Of a DNA stretch of 64,000 nt, positions 8,872 through 28,329 are shown one piece after another. Source of the stretch: Bdellovibrionales bacterium (GTDB lineage Bacteria; Bdellovibrionota; Bdellovibrionia; Bdellovibrionales; UBA1609); contig CBDHDF010000010.1 in the NCBI GenBank assembly GCA_965261545.1, positions 160,001 to 224,000 of the forward strand, given 5' to 3'. The translations under genes and the position numbers were made by a program. The notes beneath the pieces are model-generated. The model searched no databases and was not told the DNA's origin. It saw nothing but the letters and a program-made list of their open reading frames with translations. Numbering within the stretch: position 1 is the stretch's first letter; the number at the start of each line of letters is the position of its first letter.

Positions 8872-11016
8872 TTCCTGTCCAGGGAAGAAAGTTAAGTAGT
8901 TTTAAGTATTTACATGCCTTCCCTTTAGATTTTATGCTTTAAAATGGAGTCCATCAAACATAATCCGTGTAAATTCAGTTACTTACATAAAACGGAAAAA
9001 TAAAATAAGTTCCCCCCCCCCTCTCTTGACGAACCTTTCACAGCCCCTCCCTTTCAGTGACTTATGTGGCTATCAACTGGTTACTTGATATGAGAGGAAG
9101 AGTTGGATCAACCTGTGTTTCCACCGTGGTGATTTCAAACCTCCTTCAGGGAAATAACATTACGTTGCGCATCAACTTCAAAAAATACTTGACGTGTTTT
9201 TTCAGAGAAATAATTTTTGATATTTTATTCTTCATTTATTTTTTATGTAGGTTTTAGGAGGCGTGGGAACCTCTCTATGAGGTAGAATTCTTATCCATGT
9301 TCTCCGAGAACCTCTCTGATTTTTTTCTTCTTAAAAGACATCCTTGCTCACTTTTTTCCCTCAAAAAAACGTATGTTAATATAAAAATTAAAGAGAAACT
9401 TTCACCAAAGGGGGGACTATGCGCCATTTGAAGAAGACACAGTTGGGACTCTTTTCCCAATATCCTAACCACCAACTCAGTACAGAATTGCAGCAAATTA
9501 ATAACATCATTGATCGCCATCCAGAGTTTGCCCATATGGTTCATGAAGACCTTGTTAAAGAAAAGAAAGATTCTGGTGATATTGGTATGACATCGGAGCA
9601 AGTTCTCAAGGTGGCTATTCTTAAATCCATAAGAGGTCTTTCCTATCGTGCGTTAGCCTTTAATCTTGTCGATTCAGTATCCACCAGAGCTTTTCTGGGC
9701 CTTGAATTGGAAGAAAATTACGCTCACTCCACCTTACAGGACTTGATTGTTCAAATAAGTGAAGAAACTTGGGGAATTATTAGCGCCTCTTTAGTTTCAG
9801 ATGCAAGAGATCAAAAGATTGAGCCGTGTAAGAAAATGAGATTGGACAGTACAGTGACGAAATCAAATATTCATCATCCAACGGATGCATCGCTTTTATA
9901 TGACTGCATAAGAGTTACAGAAAGAGAATTTAAAAAAGTTCGTAAAAATGTCATGAAAGATTTTTGGCGACTTATTTCAAGAGAAGATCTTAAGAGAGCA
10001 AAAACCTTTCTTTACAAAATTAATAATTCCAAAAATGATGCGGAAAGACTACCTTGCTATAAGGAGCTTTTAAAAATCGCTACCAAATTGAACAAAGGAT
10101 TACCTGATACCATCAGAAAGATAAAAAAAGAACAAAAATGTGTGAAGATGAATGCTTTGAAAAAGAGTCTAAAACAGTTAGAAAATGTTGCCTTCTACCT
10201 GGAAAAAATCATCTTTCAAACTCAAAAAAGAGTTATTGAGGGGAAAAAAGTATCTTCTGAAAAAAAGGTCCTATCCATCTTTGAACCGCATACAGACATT
10301 ATTGTAAAGGGGCAAAGAGAAGTCGAGTTTGGGCATAAAATCTTTCTGACCTCAGGGCAAAGCAACATGATTTTAGATTGTCAGATCCCTGATGGCAACC
10401 CCGCAGACTCTGATATGTTTTTAAAAGTTATGAATTCAGTGACACAAACCTATGGGGCTTGCCCTGTAAAAGTAAGTGCAGATGGTGGGTTTGCTTCAAA
10501 AGAAAATCTTGAAGAGGCCAAAGAGATGGGGGCTAAAGATGTTTGCTTCCCAGAAAAAAAAGGAATGAAAATATTAAAGATGGTTAAAAGTGCTTGGGTC
10601 TTTAAAAATCTTCTCAATTGGAGAGCCGGAATAGAGGCTGTTATTTCATTCCTTAAGAGATGTTTTGGTATGAGAGTTGCTTACTGGAAAGGGCATGATG
10701 GTTTTAAGAGGTATGTAAAGAATGCCGTTTGTGCCTATAATTTTGTTGTCTTGGCAAGACATGAATTATCAACTGTCACCTAAATTTATCCATTAGGAAT
10801 AACAGCAATGGACCAGGTCGAAGGTGCTAAAATCTTCCAAAGGTAGGGGTGCGTCTTCAAATCGAAAAAACTAGGGCGCAAGTCGCTTAAAGACCTTTTT
10901 CCCCTTAATCTGTAGAGTTTGTGTGGCAAATCTCCAACTCTCACTCCCCCATTGAGGCATTGGGAGGCTCAATGGGGAGTGTCAGAGAACAAAAAATGGG
11001 CCTTTCTGGACAGAAA
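8872..11016 (+). mobile_element. ISNCY/IS5-like DDE insertion sequence, copy 1
   Basis: Imperfect TIRs TTCCTGTCCAG..CTGGACAGAAA, flanked by CTAAGTAG. The empty site is visible at 7761-7768. Confidence 0.85.
9419..10783 (+). CDS. ISNCY-type DDE transposase
   Basis: RLDSTV..SNIHHPTD, SIFEPHT, EFGHK, ADGGF and RAGIEA.IS.LKR motifs. Confidence 0.85.
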   Translation: MRHLKKTQLGLFSQYPNHQLSTELQQINNIIDRHPEFAHMVHEDLVKEKKDSGDIGMTSEQVLKVAILKSIRGLSYRALAFNLVDSVSTRAFLGLELEENYAHSTLQDLIVQISEETWGIISASLVSDARDQKIEPCKKMRLDSTVTKSNIHHPTDASLLYDCIRVTEREFKKVRKNVMKDFWRLISREDLKRAKTFLYKINNSKNDAERLPCYKELLKIATKLNKGLPDTIRKIKKEQKCVKMNALKKSLKQLENVAFYLEKIIFQTQKRVIEGKKVSSEKKVLSIFEPHTDIIVKGQREVEFGHKIFLTSGQSNMILDCQIPDGNPADSDMFLKVMNSVTQTYGACPVKVSADGGFASKENLEEAKEMGAKDVCFPEKKGMKILKMVKSAWVFKNLLNWRAGIEAVISFLKRCFGMRVAYWKGHDGFKRYVKNAVCAYNFVVLARHELSTVT

Positions 11017-11024
11017 CTAAGTAG

Positions 11025-13170
11025 TTCCTGTCCAGGGAAGAAAGTTAAGTAGTTTTAAGTATTTACATGCCTTCCCTTTAGATTTTATGCTTTAAAATGG
11101 AGTCCATCAAACATAATCCGTGTAAATTCAGTTACTTACATAAAACGGAAAAATAAAATAAGTTCCCCCCCCCCCTCTCTTGACGAACCTTTCACAGCCC
11201 CTCCCTTTCAGTGACTTATGTGGCTATCAACTGGTTACTTGATATGAGAGGAAGAGTTGGATCAACCTGTGTTTCCACCGTGGTGATTTCAAACCTCCTT
11301 CAGGGAAATAACATTACGTTGCGCATCAACTTCAAAAAATACTTGACGTGTTTTTTCAGAGAAATAATTTTTGATATTTTATTCTTCATTTATTTTTTAT
11401 GTAGGTTTTAGGAGGCGTGGGAACCTCTCTATGAGGTAGAATTCTTATCCATGTTCTCCGAGAACCTCTCTGATTTTTTTCTTCTTAAAAGACATCCTTG
11501 CTCACTTTTTTCCCTCAAAAAAACGTATGTTAATATAAAAATTAAAGAGAAACTTTCACCAAAGGGGGGACTATGCGCCATTTGAAGAAGACACAGTTGG
11601 GACTCTTTTCCCAATATCCTAACCACCAACTCAGTACAGAATTGCAGCAAATTAATAACATCATTGATCGCCATCCAGAGTTTGCCCATATGGTTCATGA
11701 AGACCTTGTTAAAGAAAAGAAAGATTCTGGTGATATTGGTATGACATCGGAGCAAGTTCTCAAGGTGGCTATTCTTAAATCCATAAGAGGTCTTTCCTAT
11801 CGTGCGTTAGCCTTTAATCTTGTCGATTCAGTATCCACCAGAGCTTTTCTGGGCCTTGAATTGGAAGAAAATTACGCTCACTCCACCTTACAGGACTTGA
11901 TTGTTCAAATAAGTGAAGAAACTTGGGGAATTATTAGCGCCTCTTTAGTTTCAGATGCAAGAGATCAAAAGATTGAGCCGTGTAAGAAAATGAGATTGGA
12001 CAGTACAGTGACGAAATCAAATATTCATCATCCAACGGATGCATCGCTTTTATATGACTGCATAAGAGTTACAGAAAGAGAATTTAAAAAAGTTCGTAAA
12101 AATGTCATGAAAGATTTTTGGCGACTTATTTCAAGAGAAGATCTTAAGAGAGCAAAAACCTTGCTTTACAAAATTAATAATTCCAAAAATGATGCGGAAA
12201 GACTACCTTGCTATAAGGAGCTTTTAAAAATCGCTACCAAATTGAACAAAGGATTACCTGATACCATCAGAAAGATAAAAAAAGAACAAAAATGTGTGAA
12301 GATGAATGCTTTGAAAAAGAGTCTAAAACAGTTAGAAAATGTTGCCTTCTACCTGGAAAAAATCATCTTTCAAACTCAAAAAAGAGTTATTGAGGGGAAA
12401 AAAGTATCTTCTGAAAAAAAGGTCCTATCCATCTTTGAACCGCATACAGACATTATTGTAAAGGGGCAAAGAGAAGTCGAGTTTGGGCATAAAATCTTTC
12501 TGACCTCAGGGCAAAGCAACATGATTTTAGATTGTCAGATCCCTGATGGCAACCCCGCAGACTCTGATATGTTTTTAAAAGTTATGAATTCAGTGACACA
12601 AACCTATGGGGCTTGCCCTGTAAAAGTAAGTGCAGATGGTGGGTTTGCTTCAAAAGAAAATCTTGAAGAGGCCAAAGAGATGGGGGCTAAAGATGTTTGC
12701 TTCCCAGAAAAAAAAGGAATGAAAATATTAAAGATGGTTAAAAGTGCTTGGGTCTTTAAAAATCTTCTCAATTGGAGAGCCGGAATAGAGGCTGTTATTT
12801 CATTCCTTAAGAGATGTTTTGGTATGAGAGTTGCTTACTGGAAAGGGCATGATGGTTTTAAGAGGTATGTAAAGAATGCCGTTTGTGCCTATAATTTTGT
12901 TGTCTTGGCAAGACATGAATTATCAACTGTCACCTAAATTTATCCATTAGGAATAACAGCAATGGACCAGGTCGAAGGTGCTAAAATCTTCCAAAGGTAG
13001 GGGTGCGTCTTCAAATCGAAAAAACTAGGGCGCAAGTCGCTTAAAGACCTTTTTCCCCTTAATCTGTAGAGTTTGTGTGGCAAATCTCCAACTCTCACTC
13101 CCCCATTGAGGCATTGGGAGGCTCAATGGGGAGTGTCAGAGAACAAAAAATGGGCCTTTCTGGACAGAAA
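11025..13170 (+). mobile_element. ISNCY/IS5-like insertion sequence, copy 2 (tandem)
   Basis: Nearly identical to copy 1 (F>L change, poly-C length). CTAAGTAG at 11017-11024 and 13171-13178. Confidence 0.85.
11573..12937 (+). CDS. ISNCY-type DDE transposase
   Basis: Same as 9419-10783 except one residue. Confidence 0.85.
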   Translation: MRHLKKTQLGLFSQYPNHQLSTELQQINNIIDRHPEFAHMVHEDLVKEKKDSGDIGMTSEQVLKVAILKSIRGLSYRALAFNLVDSVSTRAFLGLELEENYAHSTLQDLIVQISEETWGIISASLVSDARDQKIEPCKKMRLDSTVTKSNIHHPTDASLLYDCIRVTEREFKKVRKNVMKDFWRLISREDLKRAKTLLYKINNSKNDAERLPCYKELLKIATKLNKGLPDTIRKIKKEQKCVKMNALKKSLKQLENVAFYLEKIIFQTQKRVIEGKKVSSEKKVLSIFEPHTDIIVKGQREVEFGHKIFLTSGQSNMILDCQIPDGNPADSDMFLKVMNSVTQTYGACPVKVSADGGFASKENLEEAKEMGAKDVCFPEKKGMKILKMVKSAWVFKNLLNWRAGIEAVISFLKRCFGMRVAYWKGHDGFKRYVKNAVCAYNFVVLARHELSTVT

Positions 13171-14914: not shown

Positions 14915-14936
14915 AGACCTTTTATCCTTCCTATTC
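14915..14936 (+). other. Candidate oriIS end of the ISCR element
   Basis: CCTTCCTATTC about 240 bp after the transposase resembles the ISCR oriIS (..CTTCCTATAC) and coincides with the istA truncation. Confidence 0.55.
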
Positions 14937-16296
14937 ACTCCTTGCCCTCTTTCTGGATTTCTTTGTGACAGGAGCTTACAAAGCCCATAGCTCTTCTGAG
15001 ATTTTCAATGGTCCCACCCTGAAAAAGCTCCTCAATGAAGTTTTCAAGCTCTTTACAAATCATACTTGCTTGAATGAGAATGTTCTGGGGAGTGGCCTCC
15101 TTGTAGGCGCGACTGGGCTCCGGGAGGTGTTCGTTTTTGGTGATGTACTCTCCGAGTTTACCTTTGGTCCTCTTGTGGCGAGCGAGGAGCTGTTTTTGAA
15201 AGTAAATCTCCACACTCTCCACTCCAATTTTTACATCTACATACTCCCCTCGGTGCTGAAACGGAGCCGAGTAGAAGTTGGATTCAACGCTCACATGACA
15301 GTCTTGGTGGAGTTTTTTCTTCTCCCAACGTCCCCACCGGTAGGGAAAAGAAGGCAAGGGTTTTAAAGTTTTTACCTCTCGTTGAAATTTTTCATTGCGA
15401 GAGACCTTAAATCTTGTGTGAGGGCGAGCATTTATCTTCTCGCACACCTCCCTTAAAGCCTTATTAATTTGATCCAGACTGGTGAAGGTCTCTCGTCTGT
15501 ACATGAACCTGAGGGCCCTTGTAACGAGCTTCACGGCATTCTCAGTAAGGCTTTTATCCTGGGGACGACGAACTCGAGCGGGAACAGCCACCGTGTCATA
15601 GTGTTCCAAAAGCTCTTGGTAGGATTTATTCAACTCTGGATCATACAAATGGGGTGTGTTCACTCCAGTCTTTAAATTATCAGGAACAACCACTCTCGGA
15701 ACCCCACCGTAATATTCAAACATCAGAACGTGAGCGTGAAGAAAATCTTCACTAGATTCGCTCAAAGAGCCATAAGCAAAAATACGCTGAGAGAAACATA
15801 GATTTGAGCAAAATATATGGGCCTTATGAATATTAAGGTCTTCATCGATCCACTCTGGCTGAAACCCTGCGTAATCAACCTCAACTTGGTGGCCTGGCTG
15901 AAAATCACGCAAGGTAATAATCCTTTTGCCAGCTTTTGGAAATTGCTTATGAAACTCCCTCGTAAACTGGGGGTAGCTAATGACCTTCAGAAATTTTTCC
16001 TCCCAAACGTCACTTAAACAATGCCTATCCTCAATCTCCTTCTCAATAATCTTCCAATCTATACCGTAAGACCAAGGGGGAATTTCTCTTTGGGTCTTCC
16101 AATCCTTGGGGTCTGTTAAAAGACCACGTCTTATCTTTCTAAGAGTCTTGGTGCAGCATTTCATGCGGCGACTGATTTCTCGGTCGGGAATATTTGCCTT
16201 TATTAATGATTTTATTTTTGTGTAACGCTCATGATCCATCTTTGTTCTCATTTCGACCTCCTTGGTTAAAGATTGGAGGTCTTTATAGAACATCAA
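14935..16296 (-). pseudogene. istA: IS21-family transposase IstA, C-terminally truncated, istB absent
   Basis: PGHQVEVDY, GGVP..VVPDNLK, PQDKS.TE and H..FKVSR motifs. Ends abruptly at the ISCR end. Confidence 0.88.
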
Positions 16297-16855
16297 TGAC
16301 GCTATGCTAAGGGGAATCAGTCATGCCAATCAGTGCGGGCAATGCCATGGTTCGCCGGGCGAACTGAGATAAGATAGGGGGTTAGAGTCCCCCGAGAGGA
16401 AGGTCAACCGACCACTTCTCTCCCCAAGCCGTGCGCGGTCGGCCGTGAGGCCGAAGCGATGTATCGGTAGGGGTGTGTGTGGGCCAAATAATTGAGCGTC
16501 GAAAATGCCGAACTCTGGAGTGCGGAGGCTGTCATGGTAGCCGAACGCAACATACCCACCAGCGCTATGGTGAGTTGGTGGGTAACTCCACGGCGTCGTA
16601 GAAACTGGCACATACATGAATCTTATCTCGGGACCTCGGGAGGTCTTTATTTAACCCCGTCATGTGCGACGGGCGACATGGGAAAGGAGGTAACCGTAAC
16701 CCATGAACGAAATAAAGAAATCGGATCCACTCATAGTAGCGATGAAGAGGACGAACAAAGGGCCTACAAGCCCAGCGGAGTCCTTGGAGCGAAGGGGTGG
16801 AACTGAAGGGAACTCAATCCGTCAAAGCATCTGCCGAACACAGAGTTGGGAAAAG

Positions 16856-17067
16856 GTGTCACAGGCGACGGAGCGAGTCCGTATAGCAGCAAAGAGAAAG
16901 GATGGTAAGCTCACTTGCTTGCTTCACCATGTATCTGTGGAAGCCCTCCACTTGGCTTACCTCTATTTGAATAGGGGAGCCAGTGCGGGAGTGGACCATT
17001 TAACATGGAAGGAGTATGGCGAGAACCTCGTGCAAAACCTGTTCGATTTACATCGTCGGGTCCACAC
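16856..17067 (+). pseudogene. ltrA: Group II intron RT/maturase, N-terminal part
   Basis: SQATERVR..LLHH..A.GVD.LTW.EY..DLHRRVH. Interrupted at the AC core 17066-17067. Confidence 0.85.
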
Positions 17068-18682
17068 TACTCCCCGGACACAATGGCAAACTTTTGGAGG
17101 TTGGCACAACGTGTCGAACTACAATTTCACTTGCCTTAATGTTCACCTCAACCTCCTTCACCAGTAGCCTTACAATCTCCTTTTTTTGCTCAAAACTCAA
17201 TACCTTTAAATTGGCACTCACTTTTTTTTGGAATTCTTGGAGTTGATCTACAAGCTGTAGTTGTTGTCCTTCTTGCCTTTGCTCATACTCTAAAGATTGC
17301 TTTTCATTTTCAAGTTGCTTTATTTTTCCTCTTATTTTTTTTAATCGTGACTCTATTTCTGATAGATTTAGAGTTCCATTTTGATAAAGATCCAAGAGAC
17401 GTTCCTTTTCATGTGTTATTTGACGAATCTCCTGAGCCTTTTTTACAATTAATTTTTCCAATGATTGTTGTTCACCTTTTTGCTCATGAATTCTACTTGT
17501 ATACTCATCTATAACTGTCTGAGGATTTTCAAGTAATTTAACTGTTTGTTCCCAAACTAAGTCATCTAAAACTTCAACTCTTACGGGATGAGATGAGCAA
17601 ACTCTACCTTTAGCTGGCCACCTATAACCATCTTGTCCCATGCAGCGATAATAACAAAGCTTATACCTTGAGTGAGAAGCAGGTTTGCCATAGATCGAAT
17701 AACCACACTCTTTGCATCGTAAAAGACCACTTAACAAATACTCATATTTTTTATTATTCCGAGAGGAAAGTTTTTTGTTAGCTTCCAATTGGCTGGACGC
17801 ATCTTGAAAAGTTTTTGAAGAAATTATAGATGGAACGGGAATATATATCCAATCCTTTTTATTTCGATTGGAAGAACTTGATTTATGTTTTTTTGGATAA
17901 AAATTATTGTCTCTTGCGAACTTGGTTGGACGCAACCTTTCTACCTTGATAGTCTTTCTAAAAGCAGCTTGTCCATAATAAGCGGGATTTTTAAGCATAC
18001 ACAAGATAGTTGAACGCCCCCAAATACCTTGTTGTCTTCTAGTAGGCACCCCCCTTATATTTAATTCCTTTGCAATTGCTCTAATACTTAGTTTGTTTCG
18101 GCAATACATTTGAAAAATATTTTTAACAACTTTAGACTCTTCTGGATGGATTTCATATCGTGCGTCAGCGGAGTCTGTTTTCAGAATATATATATAACCA
18201 TAGGGGGCTCCACATAAAACGCTAACAAAGCCCTTAGAAGCCTTTTGAAGTTTACCCCTTCGACTTCTTTCCATAATTTTTTCTCTTTCATATTCTGAAA
18301 TGACTCCTTGTATTTGTAGCAAAAGCTGATCTTCGGGTGAATTTGTAATATCTCTATTAGAAAAAATAATTTCAACACCTAGCCTCTGAAATTCTTCAAT
18401 TAGAATCAATTGATGGGCATATTTACGAGCTAATCTGTCTGGACATAACACAAGTACCTTTGTAACCTCCCCAGAAAAAGCTTTGTCGCGAAGAGAGTCT
18501 AAAGCAGGACGAACAAGGGTGGCGCCACTCACACCATTATCCATAAATATAAGATCCTCCTCTACACAAAAATTGTGTTCCTTAGCGAAATCGTGAAGAC
18601 TAGAAATCTGTGAATCAATGGTTCCCTCTTGAGCTTGTTTATCTGAGGACACTCGACAATAAAGAGCTACTGATGTTTCCAT
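17048..18682 (-). CDS. Large serine recombinase (resolvase + recombinase + Zn ribbon + coiled coil)
   Basis: YCRVSS, DRLAR, E.ER..I.ER, PYGY and LRCKECG..YYRC motifs. GGAGG RBS. Confidence 0.93.
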   Translation of the reverse strand: METSVALYCRVSSDKQAQEGTIDSQISSLHDFAKEHNFCVEEDLIFMDNGVSGATLVRPALDSLRDKAFSGEVTKVLVLCPDRLARKYAHQLILIEEFQRLGVEIIFSNRDITNSPEDQLLLQIQGVISEYEREKIMERSRRGKLQKASKGFVSVLCGAPYGYIYILKTDSADARYEIHPEESKVVKNIFQMYCRNKLSIRAIAKELNIRGVPTRRQQGIWGRSTILCMLKNPAYYGQAAFRKTIKVERLRPTKFARDNNFYPKKHKSSSSNRNKKDWIYIPVPSIISSKTFQDASSQLEANKKLSSRNNKKYEYLLSGLLRCKECGYSIYGKPASHSRYKLCYYRCMGQDGYRWPAKGRVCSSHPVRVEVLDDLVWEQTVKLLENPQTVIDEYTSRIHEQKGEQQSLEKLIVKKAQEIRQITHEKERLLDLYQNGTLNLSEIESRLKKIRGKIKQLENEKQSLEYEQRQEGQQLQLVDQLQEFQKKVSANLKVLSFEQKKEIVRLLVKEVEVNIKASEIVVRHVVPTSKSLPLCPGSSVDPTM

Positions 18683-19007
18683 TTTTAACCTCCATTATTT
18701 TCTGTTGTTTTACTTTCTGCTTTAATTGTTTCTTTATTTTTGGAACAACAACTTCGTATGTCTGTTGAATCCGTGTGGTTTGGTCGCTTTGATAGACACT
18801 TTTTAGCTGAGCTGTCCATGGATTTTGATGTTTTGTTTGGTGGGCCATTATCATTCCTTTGACTATGGTTCGAAGCTAAATGGGAAGAATCCTCAGGTGG
18901 ATGCCAACGATAGTGAGCATATTTACGACCACTTGCATAAAGTGAATGATTATATATATTTATGGAAATTTCAATGGAAAAGTTGTCTATTGTGTCCGAG
19001 GAGTAAC
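17066..19007 (-). mobile_element. Minimal large-serine-recombinase element integrated in the RT gene
   Basis: 28-bp imperfect inverted repeats (17068-17095 and 18978-19005, 4 mismatches), each abutting a duplicated AC dinucleotide. Confidence 0.88.
18639..18854 (-). CDS. Small basic protein upstream of the recombinase, possible directionality factor
   Basis: AAGGA RBS, overlaps the recombinase start, only other gene in the element. Confidence 0.5.
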   Translation of the reverse strand: MIMAHQTKHQNPWTAQLKSVYQSDQTTRIQQTYEVVVPKIKKQLKQKVKQQKIMEVKNGNISSSLLSSVLR

Positions 19008-20127
19008 GGGTGCTTACAAAGGGCAACCTGTCTTGCGGGTAGAAATACCCAAGTCAGACGGGGGCACAAGACCCTTGGGTGTCCTGGCCTTGGAGGACAA
19101 GATTGTCCAGAAGGCCGTTGTAGACAGCATCCTCTCTCCCATCTACGAGGAACATTTCCTCGGTTATAGCTACGGATTCCGTCCAGGGCGTGGAGCGCAT
19201 AATGCGTTGGATGCTCTGGCTTACGGAATAGAGCGTAGAAAGATCAGCTACATATTGGATGCGGATATAAAATCCTACTTCGATAGCGTGGATAGAAAGA
19301 CTCTAATTCGCTTTCTAAAACACCTCATCGGAGATGAGAGACTCATTCGTCTCTTTGAAAAGTGGCTCAAGTGCGGAGTGCTATCTCAAGGCGTCTTAGA
19401 AGACACAGGGAGAGGGACCGTTCAAGGTTCAAATATTTCCCCTATCTTCGCCAACATATATTTACATTATGTGTTGGATTTATGGATGCAGAAATGGCGC
19501 AAGGACCATGCCACAGGGGACATGATATTTGTTCGCTACGCCGATGACTTTGTCGTAGGCTTTCAATACAAGGGGGAAGCTGAACGCTTCCTCAATGATC
19601 TGAAGCGCAGGCTTAAGGAGTTTTCTCTAGAAATACATCCGGGGAAAACTCGCCTCATAGAGTTCGGTCGATTTGCAAATGCAAATTGCCGCCGACGAGG
19701 TCTTGGTCACTCCGAGACTTTTGATTTCTTAGGATTCACTCACTTTTGTGTGCGCACGAGGAAAGGAGGCTTTAGGATAGGGCGTAAACCCATATCCAAG
19801 AGAGTCTGCCGGACCTTACAGCACCTGAAGCTGAGTCTGAGAAAACGAGTCTACACGAGGGACCTAGCGGAATGTGCAAAGTGGTTGGGTTTGGTCATCA
19901 AAGGCTGGCTCAATTATTTTGCGGTTCCAGGAAGTACGGTGTACCTACGAAAATTTATTTGCGCAATCAGGAGTGCTTGGATGAAAGCCATCCGACGACG
20001 CTCACAGCGTGGACGGAGATTCTCGTGGAAGAGGTTGGATAGAATGATTCGTCTATTCTGGCCTCGTATATCCATACGCCACCCGTGGCCAACAGATAGG
20101 TTCGCTATGCGGTACCACCTGAAGTAG
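19006..20127 (+). pseudogene. ltrA: Group II intron RT/maturase, C-terminal part (no endonuclease domain)
   Basis: IPK..G.TRPLG, SYGFRPGR, DADIK.YFD, QGS.ISP, RYADDF, FDFLGF, GW.NYF and terminal HPWP motifs. Confidence 0.92.
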
Positions 20128-20199
20128 GAGCCGGATGCTTTAACGAGCACGTCCGGATCTGTGCGGGGGGTGCGTGGCAACACGCATTCCTACCGTAAC

Positions 20200-20360
20200 C
20201 AACTGGTGCGGGCAATGCCATGCAACTGGTGAGGGTAATGCCATGCAACTGGTGCGGGCAATGCCATGCAACTGGTGAGGGTAATGCCATGCAACTGGTG
20301 CGGGTAATGCCATGCAATCGGTGCGGGTAATACCATGCAACTGGTGAGGGCAATGCCATG
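20200..20360. repeat. Seven tandem 23-bp repeats CAACTGGTG(C/A)GGG(C/T)AATGCCATG, eighth unit at 16327-16349
   Basis: Counted directly. No spacers. Lies adjacent to the IS21 TGT terminus. Confidence 0.93.
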
Positions 20361-20725
20361 CAATTTTACAATACTATCAGTTTAAGAAGAATCTACCCAC
20401 AAGATTGACTCTGCAAGTGCTTTGTATTGAACTTTTAAGGGATTGATGAAAATTTTAAGGCCTTAAACCGACAGTGTCGAGCTCAACCTATGACTAAATG
20501 CTGATTGAAGAGGGCACAAATTGACGCTGTGGGTATATAATCTACAGTATATCGTTAGCACACCCTTGATTGAAGTGAATCAGCATATGTCCAATATCTC
20601 GGGTTATAGACACCACCTCCTTTTCAAAAATTCTTAGGGTAGTATCAGTGGTGTCCTTCATGTATATCTGAGTGGCAACACACTGTACGAACTATGACAA
20701 TGGAGCCACCTAATCATTCTGGACT

Positions 20726-21550: not shown

Positions 21551-22714
21551 TTAGGGCTTTCCCTTAAAGTTACTCATACTCAAAACTCTGCCACTTGTAA
21601 TGCTATCCATCTGGGGCATGACATCAAGAACATCTGTTGCACCTTTGACTTCAACCCCTGCAAGCCTGACATAAATCTGAAAGGTCTTGATATCTCTCCA
21701 GCCACCGATTTTCATAACGGTGGCCTGATTGACTCCAGAGGCCAGCATGTGAGTGGCAAAGCAAGCTCTTAGTGAATGAAAGACGACATTGCTTTCAATG
21801 CCCAAGTCTTTCAAATACTGCCGCAGTATCTTACCAGCTTGACCATTCCTCCAAGCATAATGCCTTTCAAGAACAAGGTCTTCTGGAGTGGCGTTGTCCT
21901 TCCTAAGTTCCAAGATGACCGCTTTTAGGTCATTTGAAATAGGAACAGATCGCCAGTACCCAGCCTTCGTGCTTTTGATCGTGCGGCGAGCATCATTATA
22001 GGATTTTGATACGGTTATGATTCCTTTTTCGAGGTCAATGTCCTTCCACTGAAGGGCCATTAATTCTCCGCTTCTCATACCCGTACAAATAGCAAAAGCC
22101 CATGTGGGATACCAAGGGTTGTTGCTTGTTTTAGCCTGCTTAAGAAGCACCCTAAGCTCATCTTTTGTGAGAATCTTAGGGACCCTTTCTTCCTTAGTTC
22201 CTACAGTCAAACCTTCAGTGGGGCTTGAGTGAACACCTAAAGCGTATTTCTCCTCAATCGCCCATCTAAACACAACATTGACGGAAGATTTGATACTCCT
22301 TAAAAGACCAGTTCCAGCTCCCTGAGCCTTAGCTGAGTCTAAAGCCTGCCTTCCATCACCCTTGGTTAAATCAGAAACCCTACATTTCCACCAGATTTGT
22401 GTGTAATTTCTTAATCTGTTGACATGGGCTTGCACGATGGAGCGATCTAAGTATTTATCCCCAAGGTGTCCCGTCCGGGTTTTAATTTCCCATCGGTCCA
22501 CAATCTCACCCCAAGTGAGACCACGGCCTTCAAGTTTTGCCACTTCCTCAACAACGCTCTTAAAGAGCTTTTTTTCAAGCTTTAAGGCTTCTTTCAAAGT
22601 TGGAATGTTTTTCCTACTTCTCTGTAGCCTTAAAGTTGGACTTGCCTTCCCTCGTGCTTCAACATGAACACGAAAGAACTTTACTTCATTTTTCTTATAA
22701 CTACTTATGGCCAT
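21551..22714 (-). CDS. Tyrosine integrase, copy 2
   Basis: Protein identical to copy 1. 21372-22947 duplicates 1-1577. Confidence 0.93.
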   Translation of the reverse strand: MAISSYKKNEVKFFRVHVEARGKASPTLRLQRSRKNIPTLKEALKLEKKLFKSVVEEVAKLEGRGLTWGEIVDRWEIKTRTGHLGDKYLDRSIVQAHVNRLRNYTQIWWKCRVSDLTKGDGRQALDSAKAQGAGTGLLRSIKSSVNVVFRWAIEEKYALGVHSSPTEGLTVGTKEERVPKILTKDELRVLLKQAKTSNNPWYPTWAFAICTGMRSGELMALQWKDIDLEKGIITVSKSYNDARRTIKSTKAGYWRSVPISNDLKAVILELRKDNATPEDLVLERHYAWRNGQAGKILRQYLKDLGIESNVVFHSLRACFATHMLASGVNQATVMKIGGWRDIKTFQIYVRLAGVEVKGATDVLDVMPQMDSITSGRVLSMSNFKGKP

Positions 22715-22978
22715 TATAAACCTCCTTAAATGCTGAGGTTTCAATAAGGACGCAAAGCTTATCTTTTCTGAAGTAAAATTTCCCTCGAAACTGCCTTGCT
22801 CTTAGAAGTCCTCTATGAGCGAGAATCCTAATCGCATTGGCACTTTTCCGAAGGTATTAAGCAGCTTCTTCTGTTGTTAACCAAACTAAATTGTCAAAGA
22901 GCATATCAGAGTCGCACATTTTGTGATGAACACTCTGACCACTGCCACACCTTTCGTCCTGACAGCTATCTATAGTCA
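22714..22978 (-). pseudogene. Excisionase pseudogene, copy 2
   Basis: Same TAA lesion as copy 1. 5' end diverged, boundary approximate. Confidence 0.7.
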
Positions 22979-26903: not shown

Positions 26904-28067
26904 TTAGGGCTTTTCCTTAAAGTTACTCATACTCAAAACTCTGCCACTTGTAATGCTATCCATCTGGGGCATGACATCAAGAACATCTGTTGCACCTTTG
27001 ACTTCAACCCCTGCAAGCCTGACATAAATCTGAAAGGTCTTGATATCTCTCCAGCCACCGATTTTCATAACGGTGGCCTGATTGACTCCAGAGGCCAGCA
27101 TGTGAGTGGCAAAGCAAGCTCTTAGTGAATGAAAGACGACATTGCTTTCAATGCCCAAGTCTTTCAAATACTGCCGCAGTATCTTACCAGCTTGACCATT
27201 CCTCCAAGCATAATGCCTTTCAAGAACAAGGTCTTCTGGAGTGGCGTTGTCCTTCCTAAGTTCCAAGATGACCGCTTTTAGGTCATTTGAAATAGGAACA
27301 GATCGCCAGTACCCAGCCTTAGTGCTTTTGATCGTGCGGCGAGCATCATTATAGGATTTTGATACGGTTATGATTCCTTTTTCGAGGTCAATGTCCTTCC
27401 ACTGAAGGGCCATTAATTCTCCGCTTCTCATACCCGTACAAATAGCAAAAGCCCATGTGGGATACCAAGGGTTGTTGCTTGTTTTAGCCTGCTTAAGAAG
27501 CACCCTAAGCTCATCTTTTGTGAGAATCTTAGGGACCCTTTCTTCCTTAGTTCCTACAGTCAAACCTTCAGTGGGGCTTGAGTGAACACCTAAAGCGTAT
27601 TTCTCCTCAATCGCCCATCTAAACACAACATTGACGGAAGATTTGATACTCCTTAAAAGACCAGTTCCAGCTCCCTGAGCCTTAGCTGAGTCTAAAACCT
27701 GCCTTCCATCACCCTTGGTTAAATCAGAAACCCTACATTTCCACCAGATTTGTGTGTAATTTCTTAATCTGTTGACATGGGCTTGCACGATGGAGCGATC
27801 TAAGTATTTATCCCCAAGGTGTCCCGTCCGGGTTTTAATTTCCCATCGGTCCACAATCTCACCCCAAGTGAGACCACGGCCTTCAAGTTTTGCCACTTCC
27901 TCAACAACGCTCTTAAAGAGCTTTTTTTCAAGCTTTAAGGCTTCTTTCAAAGTTGGAATGTTTTTCCTACTTCTCTGTAGCCTTAAAGTTGGACTTGCCT
28001 TCCCTCGTGCTTCAACATGAACACGAAAGAACTTTACTTCATTTTTCTTATAACTACTTATGGCCAT
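26904..28067 (-). CDS. Tyrosine integrase, copy 3
   Basis: Two amino-acid differences from copies 1 and 2. Confidence 0.93.
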   Translation of the reverse strand: MAISSYKKNEVKFFRVHVEARGKASPTLRLQRSRKNIPTLKEALKLEKKLFKSVVEEVAKLEGRGLTWGEIVDRWEIKTRTGHLGDKYLDRSIVQAHVNRLRNYTQIWWKCRVSDLTKGDGRQVLDSAKAQGAGTGLLRSIKSSVNVVFRWAIEEKYALGVHSSPTEGLTVGTKEERVPKILTKDELRVLLKQAKTSNNPWYPTWAFAICTGMRSGELMALQWKDIDLEKGIITVSKSYNDARRTIKSTKAGYWRSVPISNDLKAVILELRKDNATPEDLVLERHYAWRNGQAGKILRQYLKDLGIESNVVFHSLRACFATHMLASGVNQATVMKIGGWRDIKTFQIYVRLAGVEVKGATDVLDVMPQMDSITSGRVLSMSNFKEKP

Positions 28068-28329
28068 TATAAACCTCCTTAAATGCTGAGGTTTCAATAA
28101 GGACGCAAAGCTTATCTTTTCTGAAGTAAAATTTCCCTCGAAACTGCCTTGCTCTTAGAAGTTCTCTATGAGCGAGAATCCTAATCGCATTGGCACTTTT
28201 CCGAAGGTATTAAGCAGCTTCTTCTGTTGTTAACCAAACTAAATTGTCAAAGAGCATATCAGAGTTGCAATATTTCATGACTACACCCTGACCCCTGCCG
28301 TCTTTCTGCTGACAGTTGTCTGTAACCAT
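28067..28329 (-). pseudogene. Excisionase pseudogene, copy 3
   Basis: Same in-frame TAA as copies 1 and 2. Confidence 0.75.

Follow-up and report, generated by a model that had tools for sequence, protein, structure and literature searches.

A minimal large serine recombinase element whose gene would gain a conserved C-terminal tail on the excised circle

Introduction

Integration is known to alter the end of a recombinase or repressor gene in several systems, for which we refer to excerpts of the articles cited. In the ssrA islands of Dehalococcoides, the 3' end of the gene encoding the integrase DsiB (CcrB-like, ~540 aa) always overlaps the attachment (att) site, with the stop codon lying outside the island, and the authors suggested that DsiB may be fully functional on the circle only (PMC3146451). 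In the archaeal suicidal tyrosine integrases of SSV1, pTN3 and pT26-2, the recombination site also lies inside the integrase gene, which is whole on the circle only; the excerpt of the same 2021 review describes self-disrupting recombinases as exclusively archaeal (PMC8371274). In the mycobacteriophages BPs, Brujita and Charlie, integration swaps the C-terminus of a protein in a switch of ~2 kb (PMC3694055). That protein is a repressor, its tail is a degradation tag, and no directionality factor (RDF) is involved. Among large serine recombinases (LSRs), TnpX of Tn4451 and TndX of Tn5397 transpose their elements through a circular form; the core measures 2 bp, target choice is relaxed, and the elements carry cargo or transfer genes. 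TnpX and TndX are not known to need an RDF. Tn4451 has a junction promoter, for which no counterpart was found in the element described below.

An RDF activates recombination between attL and attR and inhibits that between attP and attB. Known RDFs mostly add a strand to the zinc-ribbon domain of the LSR and bind the coiled-coil junction, according to excerpts of PMC12286644 and PMC11722253. Models of the SCCmec Ccr recombinases exhibit extra C-terminal strands, which were suggested to block the RDF site, and whether C-terminal extensions do so was raised as a question (PMC12286644). These points matter for the control of direction in serine integrases of non-phage elements.

We analyzed a stretch of 64,000 nucleotides from a Bdellovibrionales bacterium (the window), which contains an LSR element of 1.9 kb. 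As for DsiB, the 3' end of its integrase gene overlaps the att site, and the stop codon lies outside the element. The DsiB islands, as excerpted, are multi-gene islands located at tmRNA, with direct repeats, a DsiA partner and a six-gene module (PMC3146451), whereas the present element targets reverse transcriptase (RT) and transposase genes, has only two genes and inverted ends, and combines a tail under measured selection with an overlapping RDF-like gene. Phage LSR-RDF pairs (SPbeta SprA/SprB, phiC31 and Bxb1; excerpts of PMC11722253 and PMC12286644) share with it the domain order, the 2-bp core and a strand-adding small partner, here predicted, at the zinc-ribbon/coiled-coil junction; unlike them, the element has no phage genes, carries its att site within the integrase gene, inserts into several different target genes, and encodes a protein that would change with the integration state. 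With XisF and the SCCmec recombinases CcrB/CcrC, it shares an LSR belonging to a non-phage element, but the Ccr extension is permanent, whereas a comparable extension here would exist on the circle only. The archaeal integrases are tyrosine enzymes whose catalytic part is cut off by the split, whereas the present enzyme is a bacterial serine recombinase that loses only the tail and retains all of its catalytic and DNA-binding domains. The window element thus involves a large serine enzyme of a bacterium, and its sequence and those of its relatives indicate that the piece lost on integration matters.

As far as the excerpts reach, the overlap of an LSR 3' end with att (DsiB), self-splitting archaeal integrases and repressor tags are already known; the selected circle-only tail and the overlapping RDF-like gene in a minimal element appear to be new. 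Full-text searches, which left ISfinder and most subscription journals outside, returned no description of the element family, the RDF-like gene or a selected circle-only tail. The passages of PMC4853749 and PMC10083194 contained nothing on the element, although the supplementary LSR tables of the latter may list members.

Element structure and host site

The element is inserted in the RT gene of a group II intron, and the following features were located in the window:

16350..20199, plus strand: host group II intron, its RT gene split into 16703-17067 and 19006-20127
20200..20363, plus strand: 23-nt tandem repeats, the intron insertion site; one unit remains at 16326-16349
17068..19005, minus strand: minimal LSR mobile element, 1938 bp (1940-bp circle with one core)
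17068..17095, no strand: right inverted end, att half-site, also coding for the last element-encoded LSR residues
18978..19005, no strand: left inverted end, att half-site, also coding for tail codons 1-9
17066..17067, no strand: 2-bp crossover core, right-end copy, from filled versus empty sites
19006..19007, no strand: 2-bp crossover core, left-end copy, from filled versus empty sites

The element ends are 28-nt inverted repeats, 86% complementary to each other. Removing the element together with one 2-bp core in silico restored the RT frame, and the core was confirmed by four further copies of the host intron in the genome, which lack the element and contain the core once. Moreover, the empty-site joint (17065 joined to 19006, skipping 1940 nt with two ambiguous letters) was found in contigs of all four sequencing runs of one sample, possibly the source of the genome. 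The back-joint of an excised circle was not seen in these contigs, an assembly form that loses rare molecules; we infer that the element would excise as a circle.

The host intron and its RT were assigned by an Rfam intron domain and an NCBIfam RT match. The tandem repeats and the intron are located upstream of an rve/Mu-type transposase gene (14935-16296), which we take to be IS21-like, so that three nested layers (transposon, intron and LSR element) are present at the locus. Other copies of the host intron occupy other units of similar 23-nt arrays, sometimes two per array. The window is crowded with transposases. It also contains three ORFs of 397 aa (181-1374, 21551-22744 and 26904-28097), the latter two encoding near-identical tyrosine integrases and the first being alike in length.

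The recombinase and the rebuilt circle

17048..18682, minus strand: LSR, integrated form of 544 aa, with Resolvase, Recombinase, Zn-ribbon and coiled coil; 17048-17067 lies outside the element
18689..18693, minus strand: ribosome-binding site of the LSR gene

Three domains of the LSR scored above the Pfam cut-off (PF00239, PF07508 and PF13408), and its structure model and Foldseek search matched the integrases of SPbeta, phiC31 and Bxb1. It is characterized as an LSR by a Resolvase catalytic domain followed by the Recombinase and zinc-ribbon domains with a coiled coil, and by the 2-bp core. The short, 544-aa form thus has all three LSR domains and, in the model, a complete fold. The best NCBIfam matches were SCCmec CcrB and CcrC, with 139 and 102 bits, far below the cut-off of 900, along with XisF, also far below its cut-off. 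IS607 serine transposases are small serine recombinases with an N-terminal DNA-binding domain; their model gave 41 bits against a cut-off of 110 and covered the catalytic domain only, which, given the length of 544 aa and the LSR domain order, places the protein outside that family.

An earlier note, made from the sequence alone, proposed that the integrated recombinase takes its last residues and stop (VDPTM*) from the RT antisense strand, and that its ORF would run around 1938 of the 1940 bp of an excised circle. Both statements were borne out. The integrated LSR has 544 aa, of which the last five, and the stop codon, come from the antisense strand of the RT gene; on the rebuilt 1940-bp circle, the LSR ORF encodes 645 aa and spans exactly 1938 bp including its stop, ending 2 nt before its own ATG. 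This outcome was specific to the 2-bp core, since circles joined with 0, 1, 3 or 4 core bases gave only 544-550 aa. The probability that the window element's frame would be open by chance from codon 35 to the ATG was 0.0005, or 0.024 under a stricter null.

To compare relatives, both ends were placed in 26 of 33 close, 19 of 30 distant and 7 of 10 plasmid loci from genomes, metagenomes and plasmids; seven close loci had no placeable end, 11 distant loci were skipped, and three plasmid loci were unplaced or ambiguous. The right end was located one base into a codon in 26/26 close, 17/19 distant and 7/7 plasmid elements. The two discordant distant elements had misplaced ends, and one of them was re-placed to the same phase. 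With the end at this position, the 2-bp core completes the split LSR codon, and the first base of the left end opens the next one. The LSR frame was open to the element end in 24 of the 26 close elements.

The LSR protein family is large, with at least 3918 matches at E <= 1e-40 among 8000 scored, a figure that includes proteins for which the layout was not established. Listed homologues are alike as far as the element end, beyond which they differ; in the 98 of 120 in which the end motif was recognized, a borrowed C-terminal tail of 1 to 212 aa follows. Annotated members of the family carry wrong, host-derived C-termini, and integrase mining would clone the excision-state form. No natural LSR-plus-tail protein was found among 28 and 41 matches (the first set drawn from 8000 scored candidates), nor was tail sequence found downstream of an LSR in 137 loci.

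Conservation of the circle-only tail

18904..19005, minus strand: conserved tail core of 34 codons, under selection; an alternating hydrophobic stretch, then a predicted short helix (low-confidence model, pLDDT 66)
18685..18903, minus strand: distal tail, unconserved in sequence but kept stop-free; its stop at 18685-18687 lies 2 nt before the LSR ATG
18984..18989, minus strand: possible -35 hexamer in the left end; the -10 is clear in AT-rich relatives and weak here

The earlier note conceded that the open tail frame could be chance. When homologous circles were rebuilt, no stop was found right after the junction, and the tail frame was at least 28 codons long in all 41 intact elements (28 to 124 codons). 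The first 102 nt of the tail aligned without gaps across 17 dereplicated, divergent close elements. Within nt 31-102, stops occurred in 0/17 elements in the tail frame versus 9-15/17 in the other five frames, third positions were the most variable (p = 0.0016), and pN/pS was 0.36 for 8 close pairs and 0.56 for 136 pairs, compared with 0.79-1.31 overall for the other five frames. The coding signal was also detected in a distant clade that targets transposases (p = 0.014), and an entropy test on four short-tail elements gave p = 0.047. By these alignment measures, purifying selection acts on the first ~34 codons of the tail, and chance was rejected. The tail is not simply disordered, as the note had described it: these ~34 codons are conserved, and a second gene, read in another frame, shares the sequence of the last ~55 codons. 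Amino-acid selection is absent from the distal tail itself. Two exceptional loci were observed: L135, with 12-16 tail codons only under the end placements tried (its ends are ambiguous), and L074, for which two cores are possible, one of them creating a stop codon at the junction.

The conserved start of the tail also resembles a promoter. A sigma-70-like sequence was observed with its -35 at nt 17-22 and its -10 at nt 39-44, with 11/12 matches in five AT-rich relatives, and tail codons 6-15 likely double as this promoter. The left end might then be conserved merely as att site and promoter, with the open frame as a by-product, as could be argued from the inverted repeat in codons 1-9, from these promoter matches and from the non-independence of related elements. 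This reading is largely refuted, and we give it hardly any weight: past the promoter, at nt 49-102, the coding signal persists (p = 0.004), with three-base periodicity and a pN/pS of 0.34-0.51; the first 102 nt of the tail are free of indels across 17 divergent elements; and stop avoidance is specific to the tail frame.

The earlier note also suggested that the tail might control stability. Accordingly, the tail, or its loss, could set the half-life of the recombinase, like the attP within mycobacteriophage repressors, for which the excerpted PMC3694055 offers a precedent and the low complexity of the distal tail an argument. The tail C-termini are unconserved, vary from 28 to 124 codons and are mostly encoded by the ribosome-binding site, the C-termini in the integrated state are arbitrary host sequence, and conservation lies at the start of the tail, not at its end. 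Stability control is thus unsupported, and we consider it very improbable. The broader claim, that a C-terminal tail present in the circle state only is of functional consequence, withstood the check on homologous circles that the note itself proposed, and the note's interpretation as a whole is partly supported.

Pfam, NCBIfam and PDB sequence searches with the tail gave nothing useful, and a structure model of the tail alone was devoid of strands. Homology of the tail to the small protein described below (hhalign probability of 2%) or to a segment of the LSR was rejected by comparison. A junction promoter was also rejected, with at best 5-9 of 12 matches in 26 elements. Another rejected candidate was an in-frame fusion, at the left end, between the tail and the host RT, since in same-sense insertions in the RT motif the RT frame runs into a frame that stops within 3-6 codons. 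Host frames do fuse to the tail in some other insertions, probably incidentally. Moreover, in-frame fusions to the tail were seen in three database proteins (P0128, P0135 and P0138), the fused partner being a transposase, a plasmid RepA or an rve integrase, and these represent more target genes.

A small gene encoding a candidate directionality factor

18639..18848, minus strand: small gene, predicted RDF of 69 aa (71 from an ATG at 18854), in the +1 frame to the tail, from conservation and predicted binding
18855-18860, minus strand: ribosome-binding site of the small gene

The second gene is unannotated, overlaps the distal tail and extends 44 nt into the LSR gene. A small ORF with its own ribosome-binding site was kept in all 26 close elements, with a pN/pS of 0.42 (26 close pairs) and stops in 0/21; by eye, similar small ORFs were observed in the distant and plasmid groups. 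No family was found for the small protein in Pfam, NCBIfam and PDB sequence searches, and the Atlas search returned only hypothetical clusters, at 0.79-0.80.

The predicted complex of LSR residues 150-540 with the small protein scored 0.75, compared with 0.01 for the best of three controls; the mark used was reached by 116/157 solved complexes and 2/215 mismatched pairs. At least 87% of contacts were shared between runs, and the partner pLDDT was at least 68. The predicted interface on the LSR comprised residues 518-528 and helices 371-397 and 484-510: residues 13-16 of the small protein touched the last LSR strand (520-524), and residues 26-34 packed against LSR 488-507, near the base of the coiled coil. 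The score may be partly owed to likeness with solved integrase-RDF structures, several of which were among the Foldseek matches. Overall, the small protein is predicted to bind the LSR at the site and in the mode of known RDFs. The ~34 conserved tail residues begin ~15 residues past the LSR strand to which the small protein is predicted to bind. A role of the tail in directionality, as raised in the earlier note, is indirectly favored by this modeled site on the strand just before the junction.

Alternatively, the tail may be needed by the integrating enzyme for target capture or synapsis, and not via the RDF site; the integrated short form would then be unable to integrate, or idle until complemented. 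The same selection data would fit this case, as would the rule for archaeal split integrases (PMC8371274, as excerpted), and the basic and aromatic character of the tail could allow contact with DNA. We hold such a partial suicide to be unlikely: the short form keeps all three LSR domains and a complete modeled fold, excision must come first while the chromosome encodes the short form only, and the RDF-like gene is kept in every group examined.

Variants of the arrangement were also observed. In a 2.25-kb variant from rhizobia and actinobacteria (L129, L130, L132 and L137), an extra ribbon-helix-helix-type gene is located between a tail of 30-34 codons and the RDF-like gene. In four short-tailed elements (L003, L071, L081 and L107), the small gene lies in the tail frame, 3' of the tail stop, and terminates where the LSR gene begins; read-through of the tail stop could conceivably fuse tail and RDF there.

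An open frame around the whole circle

The tail frame came within 24 nt of the ATG in 12 of the 17 dereplicated close elements, compared with an expected 1.08, or 2.04 under a stricter null, and reached the ATG in 7 of 12 distant elements (2.44 expected). Eleven GC-rich elements stop at -2, as the window element does. Synonymous choices that create a stop in the tail frame were depleted in the small gene (5/100 versus 60/292 elsewhere, p = 1.4e-4), all five belonging to the clade that lost the long tail; the LSR gene exhibited no such avoidance (340/1166 versus 1050/3298).

The full-circle run was present in 28 of the 41 intact elements and absent in 13. Four plasmid elements with a longer leader, three of which have an annotated ribbon-helix-helix gene, likewise stop early. 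On a quick version of the tree, from which L056, L063, L005 and L094 were left out, the state of the run was clustered, with 6 changes versus 11.4 when shuffled, and the pooled P values are therefore overstated; it also persists across long branches and under two frame relations. These comparisons indicate that the run around the whole circle is under selection, yet is dispensable and not universal.

Selection might act on translation only, with an inert peptide: read-through to the LSR start would couple re-initiation and cover the RDF start on transcripts that circle more than once. Such an expression switch agrees with the avoidance of stops through the small gene, with the clustering of tail-frame stops between -18 and +4 of the ATG under both frame relations, and with the lack of terminator-like sites in the element (0 found versus 1.9 expected). 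As the sole explanation it seems quite improbable to us, considering that the first 34 tail codons are selected at the amino-acid level, that short-tailed clades keep 28-35 conserved codons without coupling, and that the RDF start is uncovered in the first round of the transcript.

Proposed mechanism

We lean, without strong confidence, towards a state-dependent integrase, in which the short LSR and the RDF would excise, a circle-only tail would cover the RDF site and commit the enzyme to integration, and the long frame would couple translation. The starting points of this model are observed: the geometry, the coding selection on the tail and the small gene, and the stop avoidance. RDF binding is predicted, whereas the formation of the circle, the competition between tail and RDF and the coupling are what we infer.

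The LSR gene contains the crossover site within its 3' end. In the integrated state, the short LSR with its host-derived filler end would be made together with the RDF encoded in the leader. The short LSR and the small protein are all that can be encoded in the chromosome, and they form the expected excising pair. The RDF would pair with the exposed last zinc-ribbon strand and pack on the coiled-coil junction, favoring excision to the circle. There, the LSR would gain the tail, whose first ~30-34 residues (a strand-like stretch and a helix) would most likely fold back on the same edge strand; the folded-back tail would exclude the RDF, leaving the enzyme committed to integration. Two large clades also keep the tail frame free of stops across the RDF gene as far as the LSR start codon, probably to couple translation; such coupling would act on transcripts circling more than once and raise the LSR relative to the RDF.

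A further-reaching proposal, to which we stop just short of subscribing, is that recombination itself builds an intramolecular anti-RDF in a widespread family of minimal elements: the tail would occupy the RDF site, and excision would flip the enzyme to integration without a regulator. A single stretch of ~320 bp would then combine the roles of att site, promoter, tail and RDF gene, using two frames, and almost the entire circle would be translated. Since the same enzyme with and without an extension, together with a candidate RDF, is available within 1.9 kb, the question raised for C-terminal extensions is directly testable. A natural RDF-resistant tail could also serve one-way integrases.

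Copies, relatives and targets

In its own genome, the element was found in five full copies (99.9-100% identical) and one interrupted copy, each occupying the same position in the intron. The intron is polymorphic, and both alleles were found in filled as well as in empty introns, suggesting that insertion, excision or conversion has occurred repeatedly. Members of a 97% subfamily in the same genome occupied the PQG..SP motif in three other RT genes, as well as one further gene, presumably an oxoprolinase. Two of the four left ends of this subfamily rebuilt to the same 645-aa frame; the other two, both in copies interrupted by other insertions, had one extra base that would shift the frame.

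Ligation by LSRs requires matching central dinucleotides. Cores were equal at both ends in 19 of 25 relatives and unlike in six, some of them with the target gene otherwise restored, which suggests relaxed dinucleotide matching or chimeric contigs. Moreover, one copy in the own genome has a core unlike its empty site; judged from these sites, unlike cores would fit a circular donor bringing its own core. The RT PQG..SP motif was restored in 12 of the 26 close elements, and the GC-rich clade restores a transposase motif (IS5-family, we assume). The targets are conserved motifs of other mobile genes, namely intron RTs and transposases.

Among 300 other genomes of the same class, no close element was found; 171 contained distant LSRs, with at most ~40% identity over short stretches and 23-30% near full length. 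Viral contigs contained nine distant loci only.

Other arrangements were observed in the own genome (G000). The copies at C10:793054-794989 and C7:146916-151828 have swapped flanks (the RT site and an oxoprolinase-like gene), as after recombination between element copies or an assembly mis-join. An interrupted copy at C2:409442-418375 has the intron flank at one end and unrelated sequence after the same core at the other, which suggests an adjacent deletion by the recombinase. Finally, a second LSR (~670 aa, 23% identical to the first) was present in eight near-identical copies (C11:177120 and seven more). Its left boundary lies inside the coding sequence of a 454-aa transposase that is also seen in the window at 9419-10783 and 11573-12937, and its stop codon falls inside the shared region; it appears to be another transposase-targeting LSR element.
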